From: Bacilli bacterium
Lineage (GTDB): Bacteria; Bacillota_I; Bacilli_A; RFN20; CAG-826
Assembly (NCBI GenBank): GCA_017454295.1
Contig: JAFTDF010000042.1
Coordinates: 484-64,483 of the forward strand
Length of the DNA stretch: 64,000 nucleotides
Direction: 5' to 3'
The position numbers and the translations under genes are program-made. This document shows, piece by piece, positions 30,802 to 61,074 of this stretch. The notes below the pieces were generated by a model. That model was not told the origin of the DNA. It was given only the letters and a program-made list of their open reading frames with translations, and did not search any database. The first letter of the stretch is position 1. Each line of letters opens with the position of its first letter.

Positions 30802-33800
30802 TTAGGAATTCGGAGTCGTCACATTGATGGTGACCGTTGATCCAGTGGTCACCTCGCCATCGTTGATGTAATACTTGAACGACGTGTAGGTCTTAGGATT
30901 CCCACCAATGGTGACTGAGATCGTCGAATTGGCTTTATCGACAGTAACCACATAATTCTCACCCGTCCTGGTCATCTTAAATCTATAGGAAGTGAGATTT
31001 TGGTAATTGGCTTCGTCGCCGCTAGTAATGATCTCTCCAATCAATTCCCAGTCCAAATTGGCGATAACCGTATCTTGCGATGCGGTGTAGCTGTATTCGA
31101 AGCACGTGGTGTTTTGAGTGCCAACGGTGTTAAGAGTCTGTAATTCAGTATCCGTAAAGAGGCGGCCTTTGTTTTCGCCATAGCTCGTGCCTTTATAAAC
31201 GTTGATATATTCTGGGGTCTCCCCATCTTTGGTTTGGACCCAAGTGTTATTGGCTGCGTTATTGACGTTGGAAATCACCGTTTTCGTCACCGATCCGGTA
31301 GAACTGTTCGTGTCGAAATAAGTAACCCGGGTTTCGGTGTAATTTGTCGTGCTGTCAGGTGTCAAAGTGACAGGATTATTGTTTTCCTGGGTGGTGATAT
31401 CTTCCCCTTGGTAGCGCAACGTGACGCTCGGAGGGCCGGAGCGCGATAGCGTAACGATATTGGAGTTACGAATCAATTGAATGGAAGCGGCTGTTTCCGC
31501 GGAGGTGGAGATGGAAATAGCAATGGTATCAGCGTTGTCTAGGTCGGTCTTGGCGACGCGTTTTCCGTCGACCGTCTTTATAATCGCGGAGATCGCCGTG
31601 GCGGCATCCGCTACGAGAACCACGCCCTTTGGATACTTCATCATTTGGGTCACGAGTGCGAATTTCTCATAGACCTCGGTGCGGTTGTCTTTCATGGCGT
31701 TGGCTCCGATATCGAGGTAAATCAAATATGCACCGACTTCCCCATTGTCTACGGATCCTAAGCAATATTCACCATCGTTGATTGGGATTTCGAAATAATA
31801 CGCTTTGTTTTGGTTGTTCGTAAGCGTGCCAGGGGTCTTGATTCTGCCCATATCAAACTTCAGTTCGTATCTTGTTTTGAAATCGTTGTAGTAAGCCGTC
31901 GCGTTCGACCCGTATTGATTATTGAATTCGGTTTCGGTCAATGGGCTTTCCGAGTACGGAACGTCGGCTCCCGCAACCTGGTAAATCTCATATTTATTTT
32001 GCGTCGCATCGAGTCGGAATGGACTGGTAAAGCGAATTCCGTTTGCCGTTTGGAGTTTATAGATATAAGAATGATTCTCAATTCCGTCTCCATAGACGCC
32101 CAGGATTTCTTCGATGGAAGTGATATTGAGCTTATTTGCAGTTCGATTAACGCGATGCAAGGAGAAGAACGAATCGACGGTACCACCACCCATATAAGCA
32201 CCGGCGAAAAAGTTCACATAACCCCGTTCTTTCAAGTTGAAGTCAATTGAATTGGCCGGCAATTCGTAATTCTGGTTGTCGTAAGTATGTTCTAGCACCC
32301 GAACAAACTCGGCTTGAACTTTATTCTTGGCGTCAATTGATGCCTGCATGAAATGAAGTCCATAGACATTGGTTCCGTCATCGCTAAGGGTTTTCTCGAT
32401 TTCCCCTTTAGATTTTAGGTATTTGTTACTAAAGCCCGCGAGATCCGAAGCACCAATCGTATGATCGGAGAAAGAGCTCCCGGATCCGGTGATTGTTCGG
32501 ACGTCTGAAAACTCTCCGGAGGATTGATCGAAATTGGTTAAATTTCCGCTAATGGGATATTCGGAGACGCGGATGGTTGAATCTCTACCGGCGCGTCCGC
32601 CGCCCCAGTCATAATAATAATAGGTTGTCCAACCATCACTATAGGAACCGTTGGAGTAATTTGACCCGCCAACGACATAACCGGTGTTATTCAAAATAGG
32701 TTCGTATTTGTTAACAACGGTCGTCTTGTCACTATCAATAAATCCATCTTTACTCGATACGGAAAGAGGGAAATAGGAAACGTCCTTTCCATGATAGCAG
32801 GATTCATAGGTTTGAATCGTGTCCGTCCCTGTCCTGTCAGTCACTTCTTGGGTTTTGTCTAAGGGGCTATCATAAAGCCAATATTCTATGGTCGGAACGA
32901 TGGCGCCACTGGTGCCATACGAAAAAGCTCCGTTGGAAAAAGTCAAATAATCTGTTTCGCCGGTGACGGCTGCGCTGATTGTGCCGTTGTTGTTGTTAAG
33001 CTCATATTTGGCATATCCCGTTGAGGTGCCGCTGGTGACGCCGGCAACGAAGGTGGTGGGCGTTAAATAATAGCGCTTGTTATTGAATTGGGTATAGATG
33101 TTGGTTCCATCCATCTGCCATTCCGTAGCTTCATCCGGATCCGTTGTGGTAACCCAAGGATACGCGTCAGCACTAGCGTGTTTTTGATCGCTTACGCCCA
33201 AATAATAGGTCTGGTTGCCAGAAGTATAGGAAATATAGAAAGTCTGAGCAGCCAAAGCCCACCCAGAGTTGTAATAGAGTTGATAATTCCCCGATGTGTA
33301 ATAGCGTCCGTCTTCGTCTTCGTAACAAGTCCAGGAACCTTGTGTGTTTCCAACTCTAAGAGTGCCGTTGTTGTTATACAAATAATAAGTGGTACCGTTG
33401 TAAATTGTAGAAATCGTACCTGACTGGCCAGCCTCCGGAACCGTCCATAAAGAAGCGGCAGACGATCCCGAAGTTTTATCGCTCCATTTATTGGTGGTGC
33501 TTGGATCATACGATAAAGCGTGGGTCCCCGATTTAATTTCATATCCGTCGTGGCGACGGTATTTGGTCTTTCTCGCTAAATGCCCGCCAGACACATATAT
33601 ATACGCACTGCTCTCAGAGCCGTTTTGTTTAAATAGGCGGAAGGCACCGATTTTTCTGTTATACGAATTGCCTGATCTGGCCGAATTGTAAGTTTTTAAA
33701 TATGAACCATTGTTGCTAGTGGTTATGGTGGATTGGTTGGTTGAACTCGAAAGTTCGTCATTCGCATCATATGTTTCATAAATGTAGGTCGGAACGCCAT

Positions 33801-34680
33801 TGACGTGAGTGGCATAACTTCCGCTTGAATAAATATCGTTCAAACGAGTGTACATGGACTTCATTTCAACAGAACCGCCCCACTGCGGTTCGCCAATGCC
33901 TTGTTCTTGGACGACAAAAGTTTCGTGATTTACATTGAAATTATAGACAGACCCTTTAGCTCTTTGGATGCTCTCTTCGTAATTCGATGCGGCCTGACCG
34001 ACCAGACCATAATCAGAAGAAGCCCCGCTTCCGGCGATTTGGATTTTCGGGGAGTCAACGGCGATGTTTTGGACTTCGGCGTTTGCTTTTGCTACTGCGG
34101 CGCCAACAACGGAATTGTTTTGAGCTGTGTCGACCGTATTTCCTGATAAACCGATGTTTTTAATCACCGTATTCGCCCCACTGATAACGCCAAAAACACC
34201 AACGTCTGTCATCGGAGTATAAGAAGTGACGCGCTTCGGATAGTAGCCAAATTTGGATTGATCGTTGGTAAATGTATAACCAGAAATGGTGTAACCCTGG
34301 CCATCAAAAACACCTTGGAACGGATGGGCTGCAGTGCCAATAGGAGGAATGGCTTTGATCGCGGAAGAGCTGTTATAGGTGAGATTCCCCGCCAATTCAA
34401 AATGCGGCGGGTTTTCTGGCGTAAACCCAGCCCGTTCATAGAAATAGTTCATGTATTGGAGCCAGGCGAGGTTATATAAGTGACGGGTTTCACGGATGCC
34501 ATAGGGATGCTCCAGGCTTCCATCGCCATAGGCAAAATAAGCACCGACGGCGCTGCCGGCGACATCGGGGTCGCCGATCGTGACGGCATTGGTAAACCAC
34601 GCCACGGAGCCGGCAAAGGCACCGAAGCTGGTGGTAGCCATTAAGGCGATGATGGATCCGATCTTTACTGCCTTCTTCAT
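30802..34680 (-). CDS. Giant secreted adhesin-like protein (1292 aa) with a SipW/TasA-type signal motif
   Basis: The N-terminus MKKAVKIGSIIALMATTSFGAFAGSVAWFTN carries the motif. It is followed by EHPYGIRETRHLYNLAWLQ and PFQGVFDGQGYTISGYTF...VGVFGVISGANTVIKNIGLSGNTV. These are signatures of beta-helix-type Firmicute surface proteins. Paralogue of 55659-58733. Confidence 0.7.
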   Translation of the reverse strand: MKKAVKIGSIIALMATTSFGAFAGSVAWFTNAVTIGDPDVAGSAVGAYFAYGDGSLEHPYGIRETRHLYNLAWLQYMNYFYERAGFTPENPPHFELAGNLTYNSSSAIKAIPPIGTAAHPFQGVFDGQGYTISGYTFTNDQSKFGYYPKRVTSYTPMTDVGVFGVISGANTVIKNIGLSGNTVDTAQNNSVVGAAVAKANAEVQNIAVDSPKIQIAGSGASSDYGLVGQAASNYEESIQRAKGSVYNFNVNHETFVVQEQGIGEPQWGGSVEMKSMYTRLNDIYSSGSYATHVNGVPTYIYETYDANDELSSSTNQSTITTSNNGSYLKTYNSARSGNSYNRKIGAFRLFKQNGSESSAYIYVSGGHLARKTKYRRHDGYEIKSGTHALSYDPSTTNKWSDKTSGSSAASLWTVPEAGQSGTISTIYNGTTYYLYNNNGTLRVGNTQGSWTCYEDEDGRYYTSGNYQLYYNSGWALAAQTFYISYTSGNQTYYLGVSDQKHASADAYPWVTTTDPDEATEWQMDGTNIYTQFNNKRYYLTPTTFVAGVTSGTSTGYAKYELNNNNGTISAAVTGETDYLTFSNGAFSYGTSGAIVPTIEYWLYDSPLDKTQEVTDRTGTDTIQTYESCYHGKDVSYFPLSVSSKDGFIDSDKTTVVNKYEPILNNTGYVVGGSNYSNGSYSDGWTTYYYYDWGGGRAGRDSTIRVSEYPISGNLTNFDQSSGEFSDVRTITGSGSSFSDHTIGASDLAGFSNKYLKSKGEIEKTLSDDGTNVYGLHFMQASIDAKNKVQAEFVRVLEHTYDNQNYELPANSIDFNLKERGYVNFFAGAYMGGGTVDSFFSLHRVNRTANKLNITSIEEILGVYGDGIENHSYIYKLQTANGIRFTSPFRLDATQNKYEIYQVAGADVPYSESPLTETEFNNQYGSNATAYYNDFKTRYELKFDMGRIKTPGTLTNNQNKAYYFEIPINDGEYCLGSVDNGEVGAYLIYLDIGANAMKDNRTEVYEKFALVTQMMKYPKGVVLVADAATAISAIIKTVDGKRVAKTDLDNADTIAISISTSAETAASIQLIRNSNIVTLSRSGPPSVTLRYQGEDITTQENNNPVTLTPDSTTNYTETRVTYFDTNSSTGSVTKTVISNVNNAANNTWVQTKDGETPEYINVYKGTSYGENKGRLFTDTELQTLNTVGTQNTTCFEYSYTASQDTVIANLDWELIGEIITSGDEANYQNLTSYRFKMTRTGENYVVTVDKANSTISVTIGGNPKTYTSFKYYINDGEVTTGSTVTINVTTPNS

Positions 34681-35542: not shown

Positions 35543-35637
35543 AAGCCAGTTGCCTCATTTCCGGCAGCTGGCTGTCTAGAATCGTAGACCCTTTAGCTTT
35601 GCGTCGCCAGATCACTCTGGTTTTGCTTTTGTCGGCT
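35543..35637 (-). promoter_or_regulatory. c-di-GMP-I (GEMM-I)-like riboswitch, copy 2
   Basis: The minus strand reads GACAAAAGCAAAACC-AGA-GTGA-TCT-GGCGACGCAAAGC-TAAAGGGTCTA-CGATTC-TAGACAGCCAGCTGCC. A hairpin follows (CCAGCTGCC/GGCAACTGG) with CTTTTT directly before the ATG at 35539. Confidence 0.8.
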
Positions 35638-35766: not shown

Positions 35767-38700
35767 TTATTTCCCGACGTTATTGTTGCTGCGGATCGCC
35801 TCGATGAGGGCGGGGCGTTCTAACGGCATGTAGAAGTAGTAACCTTGGAGTTCCAAATTGGGATTAATCTTGTAGAGAAGGTCGCTTTGGTCGCGGTTTT
35901 CAACACCGACGACGGCGATGTCGATATTCTTCTCCTTGGCCTCAGTTAGCAAGGACGTGATGGCTTTTAGACGGCTTTGGTCAGTATCGATATTGTGGAC
36001 GACATTACGGCCTACCTTGATCTTTTCGAAGCCCAGTTTTGCCACGTCATCGAGGGAAATGAAGCGGCCCGAATATTGATCGATAACCATGTGGACCTTG
36101 TGCTTCTTTAGCATCGGCGCGGCTGCTTCAAAGGCTTCCAAATGTTTGGAGACGTCGCCTTCTGCGATTTCGAAAGCAAGGAAGCCTTCGGGCAGTTTGC
36201 TCTTCTTGAGGAATTCGTCGAAGTCGGCGTCGAAGGATTGGTCGGCAAACAAAGAGACATCGGTATTCAAAGCCAGCTGCTTGAAGCCAAACATCTTTAA
36301 GGTCGCCGGACCAACGGCCTGGTAGAAGGAATCAACGTAACGGAGCAAAGCACGGGTAATGAGCGGGATCTTGCCGTTTTCCTCAGCCACGCGGATGAGT
36401 TCTTCCGGGTTGAAGACGATATGACGATATTCGTCTTGGATACGGAGCAAGATTTCGGCGCCGAAGATGCGATGCTCGCGACCTTGCACCATCGGTTGAA
36501 GCGAGACGCGGAAGGTCTCTTTCCCGAACTGCTCCTCGATGACTTGGAGGATGAATTCGCGACGGGATGCCGGACGGACGTAGTCGGTATCGTCGAAATA
36601 GATGTAGTCGCTGCCTTTATCGCGTTTACGGGTATTCAAATCGCGGGCCACGTGACGGAAGAAATCGTTGGCCCCGGCATAACCCTGCGGATAGTTCATC
36701 GGCATGTAGGAGATGTTCAAATCGTAGGTATCTCCGCCTTCATAGGTAAGGCCCTTGGTGAAACGGAAAATCTCTTCGCACCGGTTGATCAAATCGACTT
36801 GGCCAACCGCGGGGAACAAGATCCCGAGGGTCTTCTCGTCATAACGGAAGAAGCCATCGTATTGGGGACCGAGCTTCTTCAAGGCATCGATGAAGGCTCG
36901 CTGAATCAATAGGAACCCTTCCGAGCCGAAGCGGCGGATGAGCTGGTCGTGATTGTCTAAGCGCAGCATCAAGACATAGCCGTTATCGCCCACGAGGTAA
37001 TGGTTGCTGACTTCTTCGAATAAGGTTGGGAAGGAGGCAATGAGCAATTCGGGATCGTAACGGTTGGCGTAATCCTCTTCGGTACGGACGCGGCGTAAGA
37101 GCATCGTCTGACGCTGACCGCGTTGGACGTCGATCGTTAAAGAAGTCACGAATTGATGCTTCCCCACCTGCGAGGGTTTCTTGTTGCCCGTTTTTAACGG
37201 ACAATCGGCGCAGGGGCTGTTTAAACCATAAAGGCATTGGTAACAGGCCTTGCCTTCCTCCAAACCACGGAAGATGCGCTTCATACCCTTGGAGTAGGAA
37301 AGGATACGATACGTGCCTTTTTCGATTTGGTAGGACACCGAATCGGTCGCGGCGAGCAAGGCATCGTAACGGCGATGGGCTTCAAGCATATCCTCGATGA
37401 GCACGCCTTGGACGTAAGAGGAGGAAATGTGATAGCAAGCCGCGGACAGCGATTCTTGGAGATAACTGTCCAAGGAAGCGTTCTTGAAACGGTTGATGAA
37501 ATAGACGGCCCCATAGGTCTTGCCATCTTTCTTTAATGCGTAGAAGAAGCCGGATTGGATGTTTAATTTATCCAAGACCTTCCCCAGTTGCGGCCCCACA
37601 TGGTTCCGCGAGGAGAAATAGAAGGAATGATCGGGGTCATGGGAAGCGTCAAGCGCGGGGATGAAATCGGGGTCGACCAATTGGCCTACTTGGATCGTTT
37701 CCTCAGGACCCACATGGTCTTTGAAGATATAACCGCCGCGTTCTTGGTCATAGGCGATGATGCCCGCCATTTCGAAATTGAGCTCGCTGCAAAGGGCTTG
37801 TAACACGCGGGCCATGCCGGCACGGACATCTTGTTTGTTATCGTTGGTGGACTCAATCGAAGAGAGGTTGAACAGAATCTTCGACATTTGATTCAGGTGC
37901 ATCGCGTTTTTGCCGATATTGGCATCGCCGAGGTTATGGAGGCGGTTAGGCAAATACATCTGGGCGATCTTGCCTTGGCGGCGCGCATAACGAAGGTCGG
38001 GGAACATCTCGTGGACGGCGGAGAAGGGATAGGCGACGATGGCGTAATGGGGCACCAGTGGCACATAGCCTTCCACGTTGTGTTTGGAGATGGCCATCTT
38101 GCTGAGCAGACCATCGAAGCAATGCCGTAAGGCGGCGAAGGAATCGACGCGAGGCAAATAGATGTAGAACGAATTCCCGTCCTCCGGCAACAAGACGAGG
38201 AAATTCTCATAATGACGGAATTGCTCCACGATCATTTGGTGGATGGCGTGACGTTCGGCATCGCTTAGGCCATTGTTGCCCAAATCGTAATAGATATTGG
38301 CCAAAGCATTCCGGAAGTTCATCGAGGAGGCGATGATGTTGCTTAATTGCTTCTCAAAGCTCTCCAACGTCGCGACATGGTCAAAGCCTTCCACCCATTC
38401 GAGGAAGAAGGAATCGTAATTCAAATCGCCGAAAACCAAGGTGGCGTTATTCAAAGAGGATTTCACGGCATGGACGGCATCGTTTAACCGGGCGAATTCC
38501 ACCACTTTGTCGCCGCCGGGATAATCTTCGAGCCCGGCTTCGCCCGCGTTGATATGGGCGAGGTTGCGCTCCGTGACGCCAAACAAGGAATCGATATAAC
38601 GCTTCCGCAAGCCGCGGACGCTTAAAACCCCGATGATGAAGAAAGCGGCGATAAAGACGATGACGAAGATGATCATGGAAATCAAAACCGCCAAGTTCTG

Positions 38701-38828: not shown

Positions 38829-39566
38829 TTATTTCCCTCCTAGTAAGTCGGCGCGGCCGATGTCGCCGATGGTGGTGACGATGCCTTTGCCCAAATCGAT
38901 ATAATGCCGCAAGGTGGTGGCATAATCTTCCACCGTATAGGCCTTATCCAAGAAACGGGAGACCGTTTTCACGCCCACAAAGGGCACATGTCCCAAATAG
39001 CAGGCCGTGGCGATGCCACCCATATTGGTTTCCAAGACCACACGTTCCTTCGCCCCATAGAGGAATTCGCCCGAGGTCATTTCCTTGAGCTGTTCCATTT
39101 TGGTGAAGGCGACGTTGGTGGAAACGTAATTGCATACCGCATAATGGCCGATGCCCCGCTTCTCAAAGGAATCGGAGAGATAGCCCACGATATCCTCTTG
39201 GCAGAGGAAGTAAGGCGGGAAGCCCGGGATTTGGCCCATTCTCGTGCCGGCTTCGGCGGAAAGATCGACGTCGCCACTAAAGACACGGCCGGAAATGGCG
39301 ATATCCCCGGCTTTGAAGTCTTTGGAGAAAGCCGTGCAACGGCCCACCCCGATGACGAGGATCGCCAAATACTTCTGGATTAAACCCAGCATGATGGCGG
39401 AGGAAAGATAATTGGTGAACATCCCTTCGACGAGGCAGACTTCCTGATTGAAGATGTTCCCAAGGGTCAACTTGTAACGGTCTAAATAGGTTTCGGTGTG
39501 CTTCCCGGTCATGATGGAGTCGAAATAGAGGACGTCATCATGGGTGGCGCCGACGATCATAATCAT
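38829..39566 (-). CDS. Divergent MTA/SAH-nucleosidase-like (PNP_UDP_1 fold) protein
   Basis: By eye it aligns with MtnN (IVGATHDDV.., VLETNMGGIATAC.., VGVKTVSRFLD). The catalytic Asp of the SD motif appears replaced (VSR), and the GSAGG loop is GRCTA. Confidence 0.5.
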   Translation of the reverse strand: MIMIVGATHDDVLYFDSIMTGKHTETYLDRYKLTLGNIFNQEVCLVEGMFTNYLSSAIMLGLIQKYLAILVIGVGRCTAFSKDFKAGDIAISGRVFSGDVDLSAEAGTRMGQIPGFPPYFLCQEDIVGYLSDSFEKRGIGHYAVCNYVSTNVAFTKMEQLKEMTSGEFLYGAKERVVLETNMGGIATACYLGHVPFVGVKTVSRFLDKAYTVEDYATTLRHYIDLGKGIVTTIGDIGRADLLGGK

Positions 39567-51618: not shown

Positions 51619-51621
51619 TAT

Positions 51622-51650: not shown

Positions 51651-51662
51651 ATGGAAAATATA

Positions 51663-51688: not shown

Positions 51689-51735
51689 TTTTTCATCATT
51701 TTGCGTTTATTTTTCCTTTGAGAGATCCGCGTGAT

Positions 51736-54700
51736 TTATGCGCTAATCGCGGTGATCAAAGCGGCCTTTTGTTCAGAGGTTTTACCAACCCAAGCATCAG
51801 CGTCGGCTTTGCTGTTGCACAACAAGAACCACTTGTCAGATGCAGATCCCGTATCGAGCGTCGTCCAATAACGGGTAGAGGTGCTTCCCTTCAAAAGATC
51901 CTCGGAAACGCTGAAGGGGAAATAGGCCGTGTTCTGATCGATGAATGCTCCATTGGGATAGCGTTTGACGTTGTCGCCGGTCCGAGACCCGTTTTCGCAA
52001 GCAATATCGGCCTTTTGGCCCACCAAAATCGCAGAGCCGTTATTCAAGCCGGTGAACGGGCTGGTGACTTTTGGTTTCTTATTACTTTCGGTAACGCCCT
52101 GCATATCGTCTTTAATGCCTGACTCCGGCAGCAAATCGGGGTCACACCCAACATAAAGGGAATCCGAGTTCGGAAGGTGAATGTATTGAATCGCTTTGCA
52201 ATTCTTAAAAGCGGATTGACCGATGGAACGAAGCGAGGTGCAGCCGGACAAATCCAAGATCCCCGTTGTCTTTTCACGAGCATTCGCATCAAAAGGCACC
52301 AAGGCCGTTTTGTCGCCGTTCCACTTGAAATAAGAGTACGCGGCCCCGCCGGTCAAATTGGCGAGCTTCGGACATTCCTCAAAGGCCCCAAATCCTATTT
52401 TTTCAATATGCGTCATACGCGTGAAGTCGACGGTAGTGAGATTCGGGTTTTTGCGAACCGCACCAAGGGAAGTTCCATAATTCGCATATTTCTCCCAATT
52501 GTCCTTTCCGGTGTTGCCGGCGCGTTGAATCACATCAAAGCGGCTCGACTCAATCAATCCGCTATAGTCGCTTGCATACCCAGAGCCAATAAATCGAATT
52601 TGGGAATTGACCGGGATCTCGATTTCGGTAAGCGCAGCATTGTGGCTCATCGCAGACCCATAAATGGTGCTGACGGTGGCTGGGATACTGATTTTCGTAT
52701 AAGCGGTATTCGCCAAAGCGTGAGGGGCAATCGCTGCCGTTCCGGAAGTCACTGCACAAGTACCGGTGGAATTCGCCGTTTGGGAAAGCAAGGTTTCTTT
52801 TCCGGAACCAGTGTAATAAATGCCGTCGTCTTGCAAAGCAAAGGAATTGGTATTGGTGGCTAGAGAAACGTCGTCAATCAGGGCAGAGGCATTGGGCATG
52901 ACGGAAAAGGCACCGGTTCCTAAGAACGCCACGTCGCCTTCAATATCCAAGGCGGCGAAACGGTTGTTAAAGAACGCCAGGGCCTCAATCCTCGTCACGG
53001 AGTTTGGCAAAACGCAATACCCGCTCTTGCCCGCTACGCTGACTGGAGTGTCATTATTGTCTTTGTAGGTGACGAATTGTACGCCGCTTGTGTTCGTCGT
53101 TCCGGTGTTATGGCGGAAGAAAGCCCGTTCGCCGATGGTGGTCACCGACGTCGGCAAAATCACGGTATTGCCAGGAATTGGCTCGCCCGCAGCCTGTCCA
53201 AAGCATCCGGAACCGATTTCGATGATTTTCGGGTTTAACGTGGTATTTAACGTCAGATCAACGATGCTTTGGTCCGACACGCAATAGCATCTGGTCGCGA
53301 TGTAGTTATTGCCGCTTTTCACAAACGCCACCGTATTATGAGAGTCGTTGATTGAGGTGTTAAGGGAATTGTCCGTCAAATCAAGATATTCCACTCCATT
53401 GGTCCAAGTAATCACGTCGCCGGTGTCATCGCACGACACCCCATAATAAGTAGGGATGGTCCGCCGCAAAGAGGCAAGGGAGGCACTCGAAGTAGAACCA
53501 AATTGATCCCGATAGCATTCCGAAGGATCGGCGTTCCACCAACGGCCCACCCCGGTCTCTTGGTTGCTAGAGTGAATGCTGCTTTGGGCTTTATCGACAT
53601 AGATAACCGCGTCAGGGTATGAGAACTGCTCCGCCGCGTTTGTGGAATAATTCCCGAAAATCGGAGCCCCAAAAGTTCCACTGCCGTTATTGTTGCCCCA
53701 TAGGGTGTATTTTTGGTCGACTCCGCTGACCAAAGAAGATACATAGAAGAACAGTTCTCGGATTGCCACGCATCCCTTGAAACAATTTTGCCCGACATAG
53801 CAGAAGTTTTTGTTCGAGACGAAGCGAAGCAAAGACTTGCAGTTTTCGAACGTCGACATGCCGAAGGAGGAACGGGGCTTTGTGCCGGTGGAAACGTTTT
53901 TATTCCAAACTTGAACGGATCTTAAGCAATTCGCTCCTTTGAAGGCATAAGGCAAAACCGGGCTGGTCCAGGTCTCATAAGTCTCTTCCGGGCGTTTGTT
54001 TCCATCGAGGTTCGTCGGCTTCATGTTACCGCAAGTGTTTTCATGAAGACGGGGGGAAATATATAAATCAACCTCACCCGTTCCTTTGCCGGTTCCATCG
54101 CCGTTTTCGGTGCAGTTATAACCCAAATTCGCAAAGGCATAGCGGCCGATAAAAACGGTTTGCAGGTCACCCGGGCTATCGGAATCGTTGGCCATAAAAG
54201 AAAACTCGCTGACCGCCCGGAAATCGTAGAAAGAGTAGGCGCCGATATATTTCAGACATTTCGGGAGCCGCAATGAGGTCAAAAGGGTATTGGGGACCGA
54301 CCCCGTTTTCCCTTGGAACACTTCATAACTGACTTCGAGCAAACTCGTGCAACTAGAGAAATTCAATGCAGAGATGTTTAGGCAATTATAAAAGGCACGG
54401 TTCCTGATTTGGACGAGTCCGGAATTAAAAGTGACGCTTCGAATATCCTCGTTGGCGGCAAAAGAGTTGGAGTCTAAAACCTTGACGGTCCGATTCGTTC
54501 CGTTCGAATCTTTGAGTTGGTTGGGAATCGTTAGGGCGCCGCTTGCCACATCATAATATCCGGGAATTGTGCGGTTCGGTGTTTCGAACTTAAAGATTTT
54601 GGCATACGTTCCAGGGTTGTTTTGTATGGTTTTGGAACCAGCCGCAGTGCCTGTCGTCGCTTGGTCGAATGGAATGTTCGCGGTTTCGATGGTGTAATAC

Positions 54701-55662
54701 AAGCCTGGGTAATCGTCTGGCATTTCGGTAATTTGACCGGACTCAATTTCGATTGGCACGTAATCCAGTTTTTCATCGGTCCGCCCTGTGGCAACATGGC
54801 GTTTACGCCAATTCACGTCAAAACCGGGATTGGTGCTATGGGTCGGTTCGGTGTCACCGGTGTAATAGAGGGTAAGCTTCTCGCATTCGGCAAACGCGAA
54901 TTCCCCTACTTCATTCATATTTTCCTCGAAGTAGCCAAGGGTCATGCTGGTGCAATCGGCAAAGGCGTATCGCCCAATCGTGATATTGTTAGTCCAAGCC
55001 GAAGCCGCGTTCTTCGAGGGGAAGAAGAAACTCATCATCTTCGAGCATTTCTGGAAGGCGCTTTCGCCGATGTTGACTAAAGAAGAGGGGCACGGGAACG
55101 ATAAAAGGCTCTCGCAGTTGGTAAAGGCATGATCTCCCACTATGGTGATTTTCGAATTGGAGGTCGTCGTCCCACCAGAGCCGTTGCTGTAATTAACCCG
55201 TTCCAAAGCGCGGTCATCTAAGAATGTGGACGGGGCGATTTCCGTCACCTTCGTGGGGAAGGTAAACGACTGAAGATTCAAACAATAAGCAAAAGCTTCC
55301 GGTCGAATCTCCTCAACAGTGTTGGGAACGGTGACCGTTTCGAAATCGCAGCCACGGAATCCGCCTTCTACGATGGCTTTAACGGTATAAGGGGTACCGC
55401 TAACCGTAATGGTTTGAGGGATCGAGTGATTGGTATCCGTGTCCGCGGACCCCTTGTTCCATCCAACGGCAATCCCGCTGGCATCGCCGGTGATGCGGTA
55501 ACACTTATATTTGTCATCTGGCGAAGTGAAAGAACCGGTGGTGTCGATAATCAACTCCGTCGCAATCACGCCGAGCGAAGCGGCGCCAAAAGAAATCACC
55601 GATAAAATTAGAACGAGCCATGGAACGACTCGCTTGGATAGCTTTTTGCCAAAAATCCTCAT
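51736..55662 (-). CDS. Giant BspA-type leucine-rich-repeat surface protein (1308 aa)
   Basis: Many repeats of the form I(G/P)..AF..C..L..(I/F).(I/L)P..(V/L) (for example AFAYCLNLQSFTFP, AFTNCESLLSFPCP, AFQKCSKMMSFFFP). Ordinary N-terminal signal/anchor. ATGA overlap with the upstream gene. Confidence 0.8.
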   Translation of the reverse strand: MRIFGKKLSKRVVPWLVLILSVISFGAASLGVIATELIIDTTGSFTSPDDKYKCYRITGDASGIAVGWNKGSADTDTNHSIPQTITVSGTPYTVKAIVEGGFRGCDFETVTVPNTVEEIRPEAFAYCLNLQSFTFPTKVTEIAPSTFLDDRALERVNYSNGSGGTTTSNSKITIVGDHAFTNCESLLSFPCPSSLVNIGESAFQKCSKMMSFFFPSKNAASAWTNNITIGRYAFADCTSMTLGYFEENMNEVGEFAFAECEKLTLYYTGDTEPTHSTNPGFDVNWRKRHVATGRTDEKLDYVPIEIESGQITEMPDDYPGLYYTIETANIPFDQATTGTAAGSKTIQNNPGTYAKIFKFETPNRTIPGYYDVASGALTIPNQLKDSNGTNRTVKVLDSNSFAANEDIRSVTFNSGLVQIRNRAFYNCLNISALNFSSCTSLLEVSYEVFQGKTGSVPNTLLTSLRLPKCLKYIGAYSFYDFRAVSEFSFMANDSDSPGDLQTVFIGRYAFANLGYNCTENGDGTGKGTGEVDLYISPRLHENTCGNMKPTNLDGNKRPEETYETWTSPVLPYAFKGANCLRSVQVWNKNVSTGTKPRSSFGMSTFENCKSLLRFVSNKNFCYVGQNCFKGCVAIRELFFYVSSLVSGVDQKYTLWGNNNGSGTFGAPIFGNYSTNAAEQFSYPDAVIYVDKAQSSIHSSNQETGVGRWWNADPSECYRDQFGSTSSASLASLRRTIPTYYGVSCDDTGDVITWTNGVEYLDLTDNSLNTSINDSHNTVAFVKSGNNYIATRCYCVSDQSIVDLTLNTTLNPKIIEIGSGCFGQAAGEPIPGNTVILPTSVTTIGERAFFRHNTGTTNTSGVQFVTYKDNNDTPVSVAGKSGYCVLPNSVTRIEALAFFNNRFAALDIEGDVAFLGTGAFSVMPNASALIDDVSLATNTNSFALQDDGIYYTGSGKETLLSQTANSTGTCAVTSGTAAIAPHALANTAYTKISIPATVSTIYGSAMSHNAALTEIEIPVNSQIRFIGSGYASDYSGLIESSRFDVIQRAGNTGKDNWEKYANYGTSLGAVRKNPNLTTVDFTRMTHIEKIGFGAFEECPKLANLTGGAAYSYFKWNGDKTALVPFDANAREKTTGILDLSGCTSLRSIGQSAFKNCKAIQYIHLPNSDSLYVGCDPDLLPESGIKDDMQGVTESNKKPKVTSPFTGLNNGSAILVGQKADIACENGSRTGDNVKRYPNGAFIDQNTAYFPFSVSEDLLKGSTSTRYWTTLDTGSASDKWFLLCNSKADADAWVGKTSEQKAALITAISA

Positions 55663-58600
55663 CCTCCGCCACCTCCTGCTTCAGGCCATGACTTCGTTGT
55701 TGCGGTGTAATGTTTCGAGTTCAAGTAATATGAAGGCGAAGATGCTCGGCAATAAGCGAGGACGCTCGTGGTGCAGGCATTGCCTTCAGTATGGTTGAAA
55801 AGCAGTTGAATATCCCCAGAAGCATGGGTCGTCACTTCCATCTTCCCAGGAGTGTTATCGAAATAAGCCCGGAACGAGAATTCCGCCTTATTCAAATTCT
55901 CTTGGATGATTGGATCGGCATCTAAGCCGGTGTTGGATCGCAAGAAATCGATGGGCTTGGCCGTTCCGCCGATGGAAATGATGTCGGCAGCCCCAAGTTC
56001 GGCGGTGCTTTGGCCTTGGACGGCAAGGAAATAAAGATTCGCGGAATTGCCGCCTTGATTGGATTTGCCGGAAGCGCCAATGATATAGTCGCCATGCGGC
56101 AAGGTGAAAATATGGGCATATAGAACCCCAGAATCGGTCATGTTGCCTTCTACCGTATTATCGATAGCGGTCGCCGTCGTTCCTTCTTCGAAATCGTATT
56201 TGAAGTAACGATGGGAATCCATGGCACCCGTGTTTCTGGATTTCATCGTATAGCATTCTTTGATGTCGTTGGTGGATTTGGTGGGATCAAAACTATAGAT
56301 GCCGATGTCGTTGCCATTACCGACCACAGAGACGTTGGCAAAGGCGCTTTCGATGCGGAAGACAATGGAGTTGGCCGGATAGTAACGGGTTCCCTCCGAG
56401 GTTTCAAAGCGAGCCTTCCCTTGATCCGGCTTTTTAATCGGCATGTAAGAGGAGAGTGCATTAATCGGCTCATTCAAAGAGGAACGGAACATAAACCCGA
56501 AGCGGGAAGACCCGATTTCGACCGGTTGGTTTTCTTGGTCTCTGAGCTTCGAATAAAGGTAGGTTTGCAAGAACGGGCTGTCGGTATTGAACATGTAGTT
56601 TTTGCCGACCGGTTTGTTTTCTTCGGCAAGATCCAATTCGAACACATAGTTAAAGTCCCGAGAGAATGGGTAATCGAAGGAATGGATATCGGGGTATTCA
56701 AAATTCGGATAAGAAGGCAAAGTCGTGGCTTTTTGCGGGTAATTCGAGCCCGTCCATCCAGCGAAACCGGTTCTGGTCCAATCGCATTCCGCGGTGGAGA
56801 AATATACTTTGGTTTTCGGGGTTGAGCCGTTGATGATTTGACATTGCCCCATATTGTCACGCCAATAGGTGCCATAGGCGCCAGAGGCGGCGGCATCGTT
56901 TTTGGTGGTCACCAATTTAAAGACCCCCATGCCGCGGTCAATCCCGTTCTCTTTGTCGTCTTGGATGATCTTATTCCAAAGGAAGTCGACAGATTGGAAT
57001 TTGCTGAGTTGATTTTCCGGTATCGTATAATTGCTGCCAAACCCAGGGGGAATATCCGCTCTTTCCTCAGAGGTGAAATCCGAAATATCAAATGAGGTGA
57101 CGTAATGGACCGGATCGGCCTCGTCGTGGCGAAGGAATTCTTTGTAACGGTCAAAGGTTAAGCTCTCCGCCAAATGGTCTCCCGTCGCGGATCCACCTTC
57201 TTGCCCATAGGAAACGAAGTACTTGGTGTTGGACGAGGAATCGGTCGGGGAGCCGGCGAACGCGGCGTCTCCAGCATTAAAATCCGAACGAATCATAGAA
57301 TAGATACGGGTAAAGTTCATAACACCGGTGTCACCATGATCGGTCAAACCAAAATCAGGATTGATTTCGTTGATTAAGCTCGAATCCATTTCCCCAACCA
57401 AGCCGGTGTCGGTTTCGGTGGGGGTTTTCACATTGTCGGTTTGGTTGAATTTGAGTGTTCCGCCAAAGACGTAGCAATAGGTCATTTGCCCGTCGAGGTG
57501 GCCGGCCAAAAAGCCGATGTTGTTACCATGATGGTAATTGGGGGCACCTTCCCCGTGGAGATAATCGCAATAAATGTCGAGCGAGTATTTTCCTTCTTCC
57601 CAAGTTGTGCCGTTGGAAAGGAAAGAGAGCGTGTAACTTTGAATCACTCGGGAGAACGTCACACCCAAGCTCACCGGACGCACCGAGGCCACCAAATAAA
57701 TGCGGGTCCGGACTTCTTTTAGAGCCCCGGAGTTGAAATCTTTGGAATCCTTCAAAGGCCCAAGATCAATCCCCATGACTTCATCAAGTTTGCCGTCGCC
57801 ATCGACGTCACGCTGTTCTTTCTTCAGGAAGCCAATGGAAGAACGCCACTCATAGGTGAAGGGATCATCAGGGTGGGCCGTTTTGCTTGGGAACACGGGC
57901 TTAAACCAGCCTTTGGCGTATTTGGTATAGTCCGCGGCCGTGGTTTGACTTTCCCCGGCGCTTTCTAAATTGCTGGGATTATTGATGTAACTGCGGTGGG
58001 TCATGCCGTCTCGCTTTTTTAGCGAAACGCTACCCCGGGTATCGTCATATAAGAGCAAATCCGCTTCCGAAGCGAAATAGTCGGCATCGTCATAAAGGGG
58101 ATTCACCGCCGTGGCAAAATCGTCGACGTCCGCGGAGAACAAAACATTGTCATCGTCCCCTTCCGTGGGGTTATAACCGGTCGACTCGATGGTGATATCC
58201 TGCGTGATGACGTTATGGACGTATCCCTCCTGGGAAATGTAGCCAAACATGCCGATATCTTCCGGATTGCCGGCGATATGCAGGTTTTTGATAACGATAT
58301 CGTTGCCGCGGAATTCGCCGCAAAACGGGGTCCCTTCGCTGCCGATCGGCAATAACGTCCCTTCCCAAGCGCTCATATCCAAGTATTTGACCGGACGGTT
58401 ATCCTCGAGGCAATAGAACCCGGGGACGAAATCGTCGATCCCCTCAAACTCCGTGAAATAGTGACCCATCTGCCATACGCTGGGGGTTCCATACATGCCA
58501 AGGCTTTGCAACCGGGTGAGGTTATATAAGTGATTCGGGCTGGTGATTTCATAAGGGTGGGCTGGGGTGCCGTCTCCGGTGTAGTAATAACTGCGAAGCC

Positions 58601-58733
58601 CAATCTCCCCGTCGACGACATTGGTTTGGCCCCCGGGAAGCAAGAACCAAGCCATGCTAACGGTCAATGCGAAAACCGGTACCAAGATGGCAACAAGCGA
58701 TGCAAGAATGCCCCTGATTGCGTATTTGTTCAT
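55659..58733 (-). CDS. Giant secreted adhesin-like protein (1024 aa) with a SipW/TasA-type signal motif
   Basis: N-terminus ...LVPVFALTVSMAWFLLPGG, then AHPYEITSPNHLYNLTRLQ and PFCGEFRGNDIVIKNLHIAGNPEDIGMFGYIS. Paralogue of 30802-34680. Confidence 0.7.
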   Translation of the reverse strand: MNKYAIRGILASLVAILVPVFALTVSMAWFLLPGGQTNVVDGEIGLRSYYYTGDGTPAHPYEITSPNHLYNLTRLQSLGMYGTPSVWQMGHYFTEFEGIDDFVPGFYCLEDNRPVKYLDMSAWEGTLLPIGSEGTPFCGEFRGNDIVIKNLHIAGNPEDIGMFGYISQEGYVHNVITQDITIESTGYNPTEGDDDNVLFSADVDDFATAVNPLYDDADYFASEADLLLYDDTRGSVSLKKRDGMTHRSYINNPSNLESAGESQTTAADYTKYAKGWFKPVFPSKTAHPDDPFTYEWRSSIGFLKKEQRDVDGDGKLDEVMGIDLGPLKDSKDFNSGALKEVRTRIYLVASVRPVSLGVTFSRVIQSYTLSFLSNGTTWEEGKYSLDIYCDYLHGEGAPNYHHGNNIGFLAGHLDGQMTYCYVFGGTLKFNQTDNVKTPTETDTGLVGEMDSSLINEINPDFGLTDHGDTGVMNFTRIYSMIRSDFNAGDAAFAGSPTDSSSNTKYFVSYGQEGGSATGDHLAESLTFDRYKEFLRHDEADPVHYVTSFDISDFTSEERADIPPGFGSNYTIPENQLSKFQSVDFLWNKIIQDDKENGIDRGMGVFKLVTTKNDAAASGAYGTYWRDNMGQCQIINGSTPKTKVYFSTAECDWTRTGFAGWTGSNYPQKATTLPSYPNFEYPDIHSFDYPFSRDFNYVFELDLAEENKPVGKNYMFNTDSPFLQTYLYSKLRDQENQPVEIGSSRFGFMFRSSLNEPINALSSYMPIKKPDQGKARFETSEGTRYYPANSIVFRIESAFANVSVVGNGNDIGIYSFDPTKSTNDIKECYTMKSRNTGAMDSHRYFKYDFEEGTTATAIDNTVEGNMTDSGVLYAHIFTLPHGDYIIGASGKSNQGGNSANLYFLAVQGQSTAELGAADIISIGGTAKPIDFLRSNTGLDADPIIQENLNKAEFSFRAYFDNTPGKMEVTTHASGDIQLLFNHTEGNACTTSVLAYCRASSPSYYLNSKHYTATTKSWPEAGGGGG

Positions 58734-58763: not shown

Positions 58764-59705
58764 TTAAGAAATCGTGAATGAGAAAAAATAATCGTAGATC
58801 GCCCGAATCCGATGGTCGCTGGTCACGGCTTCGCGGAATTGTTTCAGCTCTTCCGGGGCATAATTGACGTTGATATAAGCCACCGCTTCATAGGGTTCTT
58901 CTTCCGCGGGCTCAACGAAATCGATCCCCACTTGATCCCCAATCACGGCGACACGGGAGACATCGTCTTCATAGAAGTTCACGTGGCTAGCTTCTAAGGA
59001 CGATAAATACGAAATCTTATAATAAACTTTCTCCAGCTCAGTCAGCTCCCGAGTCAAATAAGAGGGGATGTATTTGGTATAGGTTTCGGTATCCTCGTCA
59101 TAAAGCGGGTTTTCCGTTTCTCCCGTTTCCGCCAAATCTTCCGGAGTGTAAATATCGAAGTCGACGCAGGTAGAAAGCAAGGTTTCGTCTTCTTCGGGCG
59201 ATCGATCGGGCAGTTTCACAGCAGCGGCCCTTAAGTCCGCTAGCGACGTAAACTCGTTGGAGGAGAACGTCACTTCGAAAATCGCATTGGAATTGAAATC
59301 GATTAACGGGGTCCCTTGGATGAATGTTTCCAATGGATCATAGAGATTCATCACATCCACCTTCACCCATTCGTCGTCAACGGTTTCCCCAAAGGAAGGC
59401 GGCTCGCCTTCAAAATCGTAATAGAAGCCCTTGACGTAATAATGGTTATCCCCGGATTTATTGGGGCGGGTATAGTCGATGCCGCCGATACCATCATCGG
59501 GGAACACGAATTTAATCAAGCGAACGCTTTTAATGCTGGCATTGCGGTTCATGACTTGGAACTGCGATGCCTGGGCAGCGGCGTCGGTTTGGGACATAAA
59601 CCAAGCGAAAGTTCCACCGAAAGCAGAGAGTAACGATAAAACCAGCGTCGTCGTGGCTGCGACGATGGTCCGGATTCCTTTTCTTGACCCTTTGTTCTCT
59701 TTCAT
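58764..59705 (-). CDS. Secreted protein (313 aa) with a SipW/TasA-type signal motif; partner of the giant adhesin
   Basis: N-terminus ...LVLSLLSAFGGTFAWFMSQ. First gene after riboswitch copy 1. The C-terminus resembles that of 34682-35539. Confidence 0.65.
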   Translation of the reverse strand: MKENKGSRKGIRTIVAATTTLVLSLLSAFGGTFAWFMSQTDAAAQASQFQVMNRNASIKSVRLIKFVFPDDGIGGIDYTRPNKSGDNHYYVKGFYYDFEGEPPSFGETVDDEWVKVDVMNLYDPLETFIQGTPLIDFNSNAIFEVTFSSNEFTSLADLRAAAVKLPDRSPEEDETLLSTCVDFDIYTPEDLAETGETENPLYDEDTETYTKYIPSYLTRELTELEKVYYKISYLSSLEASHVNFYEDDVSRVAVIGDQVGIDFVEPAEEEPYEAVAYINVNYAPEELKQFREAVTSDHRIRAIYDYFFSFTIS

Positions 59706-59707
59706 GA

Positions 59708-59826
59708 AAAACCAGTCTGCAATGAATCAACTTAGGTTTCCCCAAGCTTTCTTTGGCAGCTGGCTGTCTTATTCAAGACCCTTTAGCATTGCGTCGCCAG
59801 ATTACTCTGGTTTTGCTTTTGACGAT
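59708..59826 (-). promoter_or_regulatory. c-di-GMP-I (GEMM-I)-like riboswitch, copy 1
   Basis: The minus strand reads GTCAAAAGCAAAACC-AGA-GTAA-TCT-GGCGACGCAATGC-TAAAGGGTCT-TGAATA-AGACAGCCAGCTGCC. A hairpin follows (CCAG-CTGC / GCAG-A-CTGG) with TTTTT abutting the ATG at 59705. Confidence 0.8.
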
Positions 59827-59830
59827 TCCT

Positions 59831-60000: not shown

Positions 60001-61074
60001 CTATTTTTTGATTCCCGCCGCGTCTTTGCCGCTGCGCTTGATGATGTAAACCTCTTTATCGGCTTCGCGAATAAAGGCGTCGAGATCCTCGGGAGAACGG
60101 AGATGGCCACAATAGGCACCGACGGAGCAACTCATTTTTAAGTCGGGAGCGTCTTCTAAGTGAATCGCTTTGACTGCGGCCACCATTTGGTTGCCGATTT
60201 CCAGCAAATCATGAGCCGAGGTGTTTTCTTGGATGATCAAGAATTCATCGCCCCCGAAACGGATCACCTCGCTGGCGTTGGAAGTGGCTAAGGCCTGCCC
60301 CACTGCCATTAAGGCAAGGTTGCCAATCGGATGGCCATAGGTATCGTTGATGTGCTTTAAATCATCGACGTCGATAAAGAGGACGCCAAGTTGTTCCTTC
60401 TCGTCGATATGGAGGGTTTTCTTATATTCCACCAAGAACGAATGATTATGCAGTCCCGTCAAGGAATCGGTAAAGGCGAGCTCCCGGAAGCGGCGTTGGT
60501 TTTCTAGCAAGGTGGCGTTGATATGGGAAGTCGCTAACGCGGAGATGACACCGAGGATAAAACCGGTGAGGAACACCATAAAAAAGACAAGCTTAAACGG
60601 CCCATCGAGCATGGTGTTGTTTTGCTGGGTTTGGGGAAGTAGCAAGAACACCGAAGTCTCGATGAAATAAACGATGGCCGCGGTAAACCCAGGCAAGAAA
60701 TCCAAGAAGAGCATCGCCGAGACCCCGGCAATCGGGGCCCAGAACAAAATCGAGGGTACGTATTTAGCGGCAAATAAGAAGCACGTGCATACCCCAATGC
60801 TTAAGACCGTGGAGACCCAAGAAATGATATACGTGACCCGTTCGCTGCCTTGATAGGCGACGTGGAATATCGTGACGGGCAAGGAGAGTCCCGCGAGGGT
60901 TAAAAGGGCGGGGACTAGTGCCCAGTCTTTATACTGCACCATCAATATTCCCGCGACTAAGGCGGAGACGGTCAAAAGCACGAGCAACATCCCCACGCAA
61001 GCATGGAGACGTTTCCGGTGATCGGCGAAATACGTGCCGAAACGTTCTTTGAACGAAGTTGGTTTTCTTTTCAT
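60001..61074 (-). CDS. Membrane-bound diguanylate cyclase (intact GGDEF)
   Basis: About six TM segments, then FTDSLTGLHNHSFL...LFIDVDDLKHINDTYGHPIGNLAL...IRFGGDEFLII. The start was moved to MKRKPTSF at 61074. Confidence 0.85.
   Translation of the reverse strand: MKRKPTSFKERFGTYFADHRKRLHACVGMLLVLLTVSALVAGILMVQYKDWALVPALLTLAGLSLPVTIFHVAYQGSERVTYIISWVSTVLSIGVCTCFLFAAKYVPSILFWAPIAGVSAMLFLDFLPGFTAAIVYFIETSVFLLLPQTQQNNTMLDGPFKLVFFMVFLTGFILGVISALATSHINATLLENQRRFRELAFTDSLTGLHNHSFLVEYKKTLHIDEKEQLGVLFIDVDDLKHINDTYGHPIGNLALMAVGQALATSNASEVIRFGGDEFLIIQENTSAHDLLEIGNQMVAAVKAIHLEDAPDLKMSCSVGAYCGHLRSPEDLDAFIREADKEVYIIKRSGKDAAGIKK

Follow-up and report, generated by a model that had tools for sequence, protein, structure and literature searches.

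Surface fibres built with a dedicated SipW/archaeal-type signal peptidase are known from the tapA-sipW-tasA operon of Bacillus subtilis and the sipW-bsaA-bsaB-bsaC operon of Clostridium perfringens. In both, the peptidase is encoded with its substrates, whose signal peptides close with G-G-T-x-A before an aromatic residue, several paralogous subunits accompany a distinct first-gene protein, and the products function in adhesion or the biofilm matrix. The mature N-terminus of BsaA is unstructured in models of the monomer, and in TasA it is the donor strand. Archaeal filaments, namely ABP/AbpA of Pyrobaculum and the threads of Sulfolobus, are likewise beta-rich, processed by signal peptidase I and joined through an N-terminal donor strand, with no chaperone or usher. 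Their operons encode accessory membrane proteins of unknown role (PMC9245690). Here we describe a gene cluster in a 64 kb stretch of contig JAFTDF010000042.1 (the window) that resembles these systems: a predicted SipW-type peptidase is encoded with its putative substrates, the signal peptides have the same kind of ending, paralogous subunits accompany a distinct first-gene protein, and models of two subunits, D388 and F320, leave the mature N-terminus unstructured. The likeness to archaeal filaments, which extends to the lack of a chaperone or usher, comes from models, and a function in adhesion or the biofilm matrix is proposed from the genes alone.

With a probability of roughly 0.55, we read the cluster as a SipW-style surface fibre or adhesin system joined to an McrBC-like nucleoside triphosphatase (NTPase) module, induced by a cyclic dinucleotide and carried by sortase-less, Mollicutes-related Bacilli of gut and rumen. 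The observation behind this reading is largely real and lies far beyond chance. Literature searches (SipW with riboswitch; McrB with signal peptidase and TasA; PDC-M26; RFN20 with cyclic di-GMP, c-di-GMP) found no description of such a system, in line with an earlier, sequence-only reading of the same DNA that had not seen the combination described.

Results

Between 61.1 and 30.8 kb of the window (G+C 51%) lie 18 genes in four transcription units, all on the minus strand, with the positions and shared direction given by the sequence-only reading. The GGDEF422 gene (60001-61077) is directly upstream of unit 1, which runs from an aptamer (59752-59827) through H313, G1024 and LRR1308 to a terminator-like site at 51687-51672. 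Unit 2 begins with a promoter-like site (51650-51622) and a structured leader of 130 nucleotides (nt), continues with F320 and Z127, and closes with a strong terminator (50062-50034). Unit 3, the core operon, starts with a promoter-like site (49999-49971) and an aptamer (49889-49966). Its 11 genes, among them Y273, E352, D388, C355, AAA505, X707, Sip274, EAL513, PNP245 and EAL1019 in that order, overlap or abut at their ends and are followed by a terminator. In unit 4, an aptamer (35560-35637) precedes B285 and then A1292. Features are given below in window coordinates; AW denotes the Ala-Trp of the shared signal motif, an arrow the predicted cleavage site and TM a transmembrane segment.

60001-61077, minus strand: GGDEF422, six-TM GGDEF cyclase (PF00990 E = 1.2e-29; motif and TM segments)
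59752-59827, minus strand: c-di-GMP-I (GEMM-I) aptamer 1, RF01051 53.8 bits, with a terminator 3' of the aptamer
58764-59705, minus strand: H313, small AW-signal protein, GGTFA↓WF, of the family of F320 and B285
55659-58733, minus strand: G1024, giant AW-signal surface protein (predicted), paralogue of A1292, no known domain
51736-55662, minus strand: LRR1308, BspA-type leucine-rich-repeat (LRR) giant
51492-51625, minus strand: F320 leader, conserved structured RNA without an Rfam family
50511-51473, minus strand: F320, AW-signal subunit, GGTVA↓WF, with an all-beta AlphaFold2 model
50077-50460, minus strand: Z127, small membrane protein with two TM segments that is conserved between F320 and the core riboswitch
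49800-49966, minus strand: c-di-GMP-I aptamer 2 (aptamer proper 49889-49966, RF01051 58.5 bits) with conserved expression platform
48968-49789, minus strand: Y273, first core-operon gene, N-terminal TM anchor without the AW cleavage motif
47920-48978, minus strand: E352, AW-signal paralogue, SGTVA↓WY
46616-47782, minus strand: D388, AW-signal paralogue, SGTVA↓WY
45559-46614, minus strand: C355, AW-signal paralogue, SSLA↓WY
44045-45562, minus strand: AAA505, membrane-anchored McrB-like AAA+ NTPase
41922-44045, minus strand: X707, cytoplasmic AAA505 partner with a DUF2357 domain
41101-41925, minus strand: Sip274, divergent SipW/archaeal-type (S26B) signal peptidase I (predicted), two TM segments
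39563-41104, minus strand: EAL513, predicted membrane EAL phosphodiesterase (PF00563 E = 4.9e-63)
38829-39566, minus strand: PNP245, methylthioadenosine/S-adenosylhomocysteine nucleosidase-like protein (PNP_UDP_1)
35767-38826, minus strand: EAL1019, membrane protein with degenerate GGDEF and an EAL domain, last core gene
35560-35637, minus strand: c-di-GMP-I aptamer 3, RF01051 56.8 bits
34682-35539, minus strand: B285, small AW-signal protein, SGAYA↓WF
30802-34680, minus strand: A1292, giant AW-signal surface protein (predicted), AGSVA↓WF

Two starts probably differ from the listed open reading frames (ORFs): GGDEF422 probably begins with the ATG at 61077 (the ORF as listed begins with a TTG at 61269), and C355 with the ATG at 46614, giving 351 amino acids and matching the gene call in locus L001.

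A synteny scan that took one genome per species yielded 55 loci, mostly in metagenome-assembled genomes (MAGs) of uncultured Bacilli, Bacillales, 'Erysipelotrichaceae', Ca. Enteromonas and Ca. Enterosoma and mainly from ruminant guts; three lie in bins with Bacteroidota names. Nearly every locus of sufficient length has the order (F320) Z127, Y273, one or two E352, D388, C355, AAA505, X707, Sip274, EAL513, PNP245, EAL1019, and about 50 species-level MAGs retain the core order. Homologues are thus kept in the clustered order that the sequence-only reading had anticipated, rather than scattered. Satellite operons are rarer than the core and adjoin it in only a few other genomes: the operon of riboswitch, B285-like and A1292-like genes recurs in L005 and L023, and L021, L038, L039, L044 and L048 have G1024-like or LRR giants upstream. 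Of the 'supercluster' first proposed, the core is therefore a conserved entity, and the small-plus-giant satellites are partly specific to the window.

The core and its satellites have a signal in common. The motif [GSAV][GSTA]xAW[FY] follows a hydrophobic stretch, at residues 24-36, in H313, G1024, F320, E352, D388, C355, B285 and A1292. Six-frame translation of the window contains exactly these eight occurrences and none elsewhere, and 149 AW-signal ORFs were found in 51 related loci. The earlier count of at least eight such proteins holds for this looser motif; the stricter G-[GS]-[TSA]-x-A-W-[FY] from which it was made fits only H313 and F320. BLASTP places the eight in the groups A1292 and G1024; B285, H313 and F320; and C355, D388 and E352. 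When the F320-family and D388-family profiles were compared, only the signal and the residues after it aligned (96% probability). Similarly, hhalign of the F320 family with TasA aligned only the signal, pairing GGTVAWF with GGTWAAF with Ala at -1 (E = 1.1e-3, probability 21%); the mature TasA N-terminus, AFND, was verified against PDB 8AUR. By analogy with TasA (GGGTWA↓AF), AW precursors would be cleaved between Ala and Trp. In the F320-family alignment of 50 sequences, H313 and B285 included, the SipW-cognate signal model TIGR04088 picked up 15 at E <= 0.1 (best E = 0.0032).

Sip274, encoded among these proteins, has TM segments at residues 14-32 and 196-214. Across 33 relatives, Ser62-Met63 (TDSMEP) is invariant and His128 (THR) nearly so; we take these boxes to be the catalytic dyad of an S26B peptidase. 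All 33 relatives match the SipW model NF046067 at E <= 0.01 (best E = 9.4e-11), and 17 match TIGR02228. On the basis of these NCBIfam matches, which are below threshold, and of the catalytic motifs, we accept Sip274 as a predicted divergent member of the SipW-type S26B peptidases, one that keeps the catalytic boxes and falls short of the curated cut-offs. The proposed logic of a shared SipW-type signal with a dedicated peptidase thus stands, with one motif in eight proteins and Sip274 encoded among them.

The D388 family has more than 300 homologues and neither a Pfam domain nor a name. The AlphaFold2 model of D388 is all-beta (pLDDT 83.8, pTM 0.82), with low confidence at residues 1-48. Of the 57 invariant or near-invariant columns of the family, 14 fall within residues 23-56; no other part of the family is conserved as well as the stretch that follows the predicted cleavage site, yet this stretch is unmodelled in the monomer. 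The F320 model is also all-beta (pLDDT 82.5, pTM 0.81), with residues 1-45 disordered. Its best match among 350,542 PDB chains is the TasA fibre 8aur_A, at probability 0.60, followed at E 0.3-1.3 by the donor-strand pilins PapK, CS20, FimA and the Sulfolobus thread Saci_0406 (7pnb at E = 1.3). We treat the modelled resemblance to the TasA fibre as a lead, not a match. Two assignments were tried and rejected: the D388 family as a known fold, Foldseek having found no PDB chain below E = 0.05 for its model, and the AW proteins as TasA/camelysin by sequence, for which Pfam, NCBIfam, phmmer against the PDB and hhalign all failed beyond the signal peptide.

The first gene of the core operon differs from the others. 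The C-terminal motif WLEGxD…LxVxI of Y273 recurs in D388, C355 and F320, and profile comparison links Y273 weakly to the D388 and F320 families (A1 and A7; E = 1.2e-3 and 2.9e-4). It may be an uncleaved, membrane-anchored relative of the AW proteins and is a candidate base or initiator subunit. Among the larger proteins, G1024 and A1292, for which a beta-helix-like nature had been suggested, are 28% identical over 185 amino acids and have no Pfam or PDB sequence match, permissive thresholds included. LRR1308 is the BspA-type giant that had been recognized from its letters (PF13306, LRR_5, E = 1.3e-60 over five stretches); its N-terminus is a TM or signal segment without the AW motif.

We infer that the AW proteins form filaments. 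They could instead make up a non-filamentous coat or a set of adhesins, as monomers or a lattice, either cleaved or anchored by the N-terminus, with AW[FY] serving as a membrane-interface or peptidase-recognition motif. Such a coat would suit the D388-family model, which is unlike any known pilin or TasA-type fold, the position of the aromatic residues directly after the TM helix, as expected of an interfacial anchor, and the giants and LRR protein, which look like adhesins rather than fibre subunits; RFN20 bacteria also lack sortases (PMC10868615). However, a dedicated SipW-like peptidase with intact catalytic boxes argues for cleavage, three to four paralogous subunits in fixed order with an uncleaved Y273 resemble sets of major, minor and anchor pilins, and the conserved yet unmodelled N-terminus is as in BsaA and TasA. 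We consider a coat possible but doubtful.

An McrBC-like NTPase pair had been proposed and is borne out by an McrB-type AAA505 and a DUF2357-bearing partner, X707. AAA505 has a single TM segment, at residues 64-82, the motifs GISGTGKTS (Walker A) and VLDEMN (Walker B), and NNDD aligned to McrB NTAD. It passes the PF07728 (AAA_5) cut-off of 22 bits with 22.9, and the family profile finds McrB as its closest solved relative (6hz4, 6ut6 and 7vsr, E = 8e-5 to 1.7e-4). Where McrB has its DNA-binding domain, AAA505 has a conserved 60-residue segment and one TM helix. The wider family is large, with at least 8000 clusters at 90% identity; 750 of the 50%-identity representatives match at E <= 1e-30, and many share the TM-plus-coiled-coil N-terminus. 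X707 has no TM segment and consists of a conserved N-terminal part of 370 residues and a low-complexity tail rich in E, K and P. DUF2357 (PF09823, McrC N-terminal-like) was detected in 3 of 25 X707 relatives (best E = 6.5e-6) and in the equivalent genes of the distant loci L061 and L062, which the X707 profile matches at 2.5e-22 and 2.8e-43. Family searches found no nuclease-family match and no PD-(D/E)xK domain in X707; residues 184-186 are a candidate cryptic ExK motif. A search of the PDB with the X707 profile was set aside as low-complexity noise.

The NTPases of distant loci L057, L059, L061 and L062 are 38-44% identical to AAA505. There the module is kept together and gene orders are shuffled: Y-like, AW, NTPase, partner, peptidase in L059; NTPase, partner, peptidase, AW in L061; AW, peptidase, NTPase, partner in L062; and Y-like, AW, NTPase, peptidase in L057, a short contig on which the peptidase follows the NTPase directly and a partner gene was not seen. 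Searches of distant systems L057-L060 found no riboswitch. That the linkage outlasts rearrangement is our strongest reason for placing the NTPase pair in one machine with the peptidase and its substrates. Two further loci show that the AAA505-type family has other contexts, possibly defence: the L058 gene (5777-7279) adjoins phage holin-like genes, with no AW proteins nearby, and L063 (5988-10503) has tandem NTPase-partner pairs, with no AW proteins in the stretch examined.

Could the pair be a motor that extends, retracts or moves fibres or legs? Type IV pilus ATPases and the gliding of Mycoplasma mobile, with its internal motor and giant surface proteins, offer parallels. No other gene of the cluster is nearly as conserved as AAA505, which is 69-79% identical across aligned loci versus 25-55% for its neighbours and the subunits. 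Its conserved N-terminal segment is separated from the rest of the protein by the single TM, the gene stays linked to AW proteins and peptidase in distant systems, and giant surface proteins are co-regulated with it. Yet action on secreted proteins is not known for any member of the McrB family, the operon has no polytopic PilC-like platform protein, and high cyclic-dinucleotide levels usually favour adhesion over motility. An NTP-driven appendage of this kind is quite improbable. That AAA505 and X707 are instead an McrBC-type anti-phage module placed within a surface-protein operon, two unrelated functions side by side, would suit the kinship to McrB and to the PADLOC model PDC-M26A and the contexts of L058 and L063, but is very improbable given the pair's fixed place between C355 and Sip274 in about 50 species, a linkage to AW proteins and peptidase that outlives shuffling of gene order, the TM anchor in place of a DNA-binding domain, the lack of a detected nuclease domain in X707, the overlapping stop and start codons inside a riboswitch-controlled operon, and the usual patchiness of defence genes, which are not normally among the most conserved of a locus.

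Three leaders passed RF01051 (gathering score 35 bits) as full-length aptamers, at 49889-49966 (58.5 bits), 35560-35637 (56.8) and 59752-59827 (53.8). GEMM-I leaders had been called on all four operons; riboswitch gating holds for these three, which have aptamers at their 5' ends, and the fourth leader, that of F320, does not belong to the class. Among related loci, a GEMM-I aptamer lies 5' of the Y273 orthologue in 36 (model R1). When seven loci were re-scanned with Rfam's own model, all nine model-R1 matches were confirmed at 50.5-65.6 bits, seven of them upstream of Y273. Compensatory changes are seen at each of the six P1 pairs. A hand-drawn P2 register for model R1 was rejected (helix 3 only 17% paired); covariation support was taken from P1 alone, and aptamer identity is based on Rfam's own model.

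In all three confirmed leaders, the 3' strand of P2 (…GCCAGYUGCC) doubles as the 5' arm of a downstream terminator-like helix with a U-run, and the overlap was detected in at least 24 of 41 related leaders. The terminator of aptamer 3, AGCCAGCUGCC...GGCAACUGGCU-UUUU, shares the strand in this way. A strand common to aptamer and terminator suggests that the three aptamers are ON switches whose ligand prevents termination. Aptamer 2 has as its platform a long helix of terminator type, GCCAGUUGCC...GGCAACUGG, which includes the boxes GGAUGAUAGG and UUGGGAC. Eight core leaders (L029, L030, L034, L035, L038, L040, L042 and L044) are built differently: a terminator-like helix starts about 55 nt downstream of the end of model R1, and a second copy of the GCCAGUUGCC strand lies at that site.

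Of the three proteins of c-di-GMP turnover or reception that had been noted, all are recovered: EAL513 with an intact EAL motif, EAL1019 with EIL in its place, and GGDEF422 with a canonical GGDEF motif. PNP245 is always flanked by the two EAL genes in the core operon; its match to PNP_UDP_1 is weak.

The identity of the ligand is less clear-cut. By our own assignment, the base 5' of the GC that opens P1 (regions 49956, 35627 and 59817) corresponds to G20 of the Vc2 aptamer. It is A in all three window aptamers and in 31 of 36 scorable relatives. In Vc2 itself, the G20A mutant binds c-di-GMP and 3'3'-cGAMP (cyclic GMP-AMP) at similar affinity (PMC6140456). At the base-specificity position, GGDEF422 has Asn (Asn317, GHxxGN), versus Asp in canonical cyclases and Ser in Hypr GGDEFs, and its orthologues upstream of F320 in L005, L008 and L013 have Asn as well. 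Aptamers with A20 and a cyclase with Asn suggest that 'c-di-GMP-gated', the earlier description, may be too narrow: cyclic-dinucleotide aptamers are present, and c-di-GMP as the sole ligand is weakened. It is still the favoured ligand because of the EAL genes in the cluster.

The fourth leader (51474-51735) had no RF01051 match even at E <= 10 and scored at most 6 bits, with filters off, against a model built from the three window aptamers; its assignment to GEMM-I was rejected. No Rfam family matched it. Its 5' half (GCAAAGC…GGCGAC…GAUGCAAA) resembles GEMM-I, which probably misled the sequence-only reading. The leader is an RNA of about 130 nt, conserved upstream of F320 orthologues, with a hairpin that exposes an invariant loop AGUCCCA, a box CCUAUCAUCC, and a terminal hairpin and U-run directly before the Shine-Dalgarno sequence. 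RNAalifold on 20 copies gave 28 pairs, 14 with compensatory changes; 93.5% of cells were paired versus 31-50% with partners slid, and none of 500 shuffles reached the observed values. A covariance model (R2) found 24 copies (L004-L048), one per locus and every one 5' of an F320 orthologue. We regard this RNA as a candidate for a new riboswitch or regulatory leader.

Two invariant boxes of the F320 leader (51540-51600) are reverse complements of two boxes in the core platform (49800-49870), both on the minus strand. The hairpin loop GUCCCAA complements UUGGGAC, located just after the core-platform U-run, and CCUAUCAUCC complements GGAUGAUAGG, which adjoins the 3' arm of the core terminator. Whole-leader RNAduplex energies were uninformative, and a longest-complement test was used instead: the CCUAUCAUCC/GGAUGAUAGG box, of 10-12 nt, is the longest inter-leader complement in 14 of the 16 loci that have both leaders (p ~0.01-0.04 for each locus alone). 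The complementarity is kept where F320 is co-directional with Y273 and where it is divergent. An invertible element, that is an inverted repeat at the DNA level, was rejected as its cause, the RNA-level match being kept irrespective of gene orientation. Locus L019 has a variant box pair with one compensatory change and one mismatch. In loci without a detected F320 leader, GGACAAUAGG occurs in seven and UGGGAC is mostly lost. Pairing between the two leader RNAs may couple the two operons.

As to the host, relatives of the cluster are all in MAGs of uncultured Bacilli or in MAGs labelled 'Erysipelotrichaceae', Ca. Enteromonas and Ca. Enterosoma among them, two genera that GTDB places in RFN20. 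Annotation of RFN20 genomes found no srtA/B sortase genes and predicted two families to be peptidoglycan-deficient (PMC10868615). In ML615J-28, too, annotation found no sortases, and some RFN20 and ML615J-28 families were found to have no cell wall; these absences were read as 'reduced surface protein expression' (PMC10868615). Of the Mollicutes-like, possibly wall-less host that had been suggested, the relatives support the Mollicutes-related lineage; the lack of a wall is plausible. Elsewhere in the window, Opp-type ABC transporter genes (8131-16250) encode proteins with large insertions (ATPase 745, permease 545 and binding protein 706 amino acids), as would fit a host related to Mollicutes. 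At 1949-2022 (minus strand), a fluoride riboswitch (RF01734, 37.5 bits) precedes a Na_H_Exchanger-family gene (707-1951), not crcB.

Discussion

In the mechanism that we propose, binding of a cyclic dinucleotide would hold the 3' strand of P2 in the aptamer, block the terminator and allow readthrough. Sip274 would cut AW precursors after Ala, and the freed N-terminal segment would serve as the donor strand that joins F320, E352, D388 and C355 into fibres seated on uncleaved, membrane-anchored Y273. The small-plus-giant sets (H313-G1024-LRR1308 and B285-A1292) would display adhesins by way of the same peptidase. From the inner membrane face, to which they would be tethered, the McrB-like ring and its partner might perform NTP-driven work or act as a checkpoint for export or assembly. 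As two EAL proteins end a ligand-induced operon, they would lower the signal and provide negative feedback.

Several results weigh against this reading. Polymerisation, cleavage and surface location are all predictions, and the conserved, low-confidence N-termini give the only indirect signs of donor-strand joining. PF12389 (camelysin/TasA), the family in which the AW proteins were expected, is matched by none of the eight, by no cluster protein and by none of the 50 members of A7 (the F320 family with H313 and B285), and their placement in the TIGR04088 signal class fails as well, with F320 alone matching, at 15.5 bits under a cut-off of 19. As to the TasA-like fold that had been expected, a jelly roll, in F320 the structural match is weak (E = 5.4e-3, TM-scores 0.24/0.30), and for the D388 model Foldseek found nothing in the PDB under E = 0.05. 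Overall the link to TasA is weak. Sip274 scores 27.3 bits against a curated cut-off of 190 for NF046067 and 18.2 against 51.85 for TIGR02228, and its family profile found no solved signal peptidase in the PDB. The wider AAA505 family matches a candidate phage-defence model of PADLOC, PDC-M26A (E = 1.2e-41), and any role of AAA505 and X707 in export or assembly is a guess because the known donor-strand fibres (TasA, BsaA, ABP and the threads) need no NTPase. Finally, with A at the position equivalent to G20, the ligand may be cGAMP or both dinucleotides.

There is nevertheless a real chance that the locus is a SipW-dependent surface-fibre relative whose NTPase module makes it a new kind of machine. 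In its boldest form, which we hold to be unlikely, this would be an undescribed surface-appendage machine, very frequent in gut metagenomes to judge by the at least 8000 90%-identity clusters of its NTPase. A McrB-type GTPase ring tethered to the membrane and a McrC-like partner without nuclease, both drawn from restriction, would drive or license how donor-strand fibres of new subunit folds are assembled, and possibly how they move. The machine would be wired to a second messenger through A20 variants of GEMM-I, and also through a new leader RNA that pairs with the terminator region of the riboswitch, so that the RNAs of two operons would communicate.

RFN20, RF39 and ML615J-28 are abundant orders of uncultured gut and rumen Bacilli. 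If the proposal is true, the surface system would show how these cells attach to hosts, feed particles or each other, give a first function to several big protein families without a Pfam domain, and provide the first McrBC-type NTPase pair whose partners are secreted proteins instead of DNA. Testable questions are posed by the A20 aptamers and the unclassified leader RNA on the ligand range of riboswitches and on RNA-RNA coupling.

Set against tapA-sipW-tasA and the sipW-bsa operon, the locus differs in its subunits, which have no PF12389 match and of which only F320 is faintly TasA-like in fold, and in the size of its operon, 11 genes rather than three or four. The McrB-like NTPase and its DUF2357 partner have no counterpart in those systems, nor do two EAL proteins with a PNP-like protein or control by a cyclic-dinucleotide riboswitch, and their hosts are unlike the lineage here, which has no sortases and possibly no wall. 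From the archaeal filaments the cluster is set apart by the lack of a sequence or confident fold match, the thread subunit 7pnb reaching only E = 1.3, and by its own peptidase and NTPase, since neither a dedicated peptidase nor an NTPase is conserved in archaeal filament operons. With McrBC it shares a McrB-type AAA+ protein, an NxxD-like motif at the position of NTAD and an adjacent DUF2357 partner. In place of the DNA-binding domain, however, it has a 60-residue segment and a TM helix; the partner has a long low-complexity tail and no recognisable nuclease domain, and the genomic context is one of secreted proteins, not a defence island. The riboswitches most resemble the GEMM-I elements of Firmicutes adhesins and pili, being full-length RF01051 aptamers upstream of putative surface-protein operons, with terminator-based platforms that imply induction by the ligand. 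Unlike those, they have A instead of G at the equivalent of Vc2 G20, and two boxes of the core platform are complementary to the unclassified leader RNA of F320 in the cluster.

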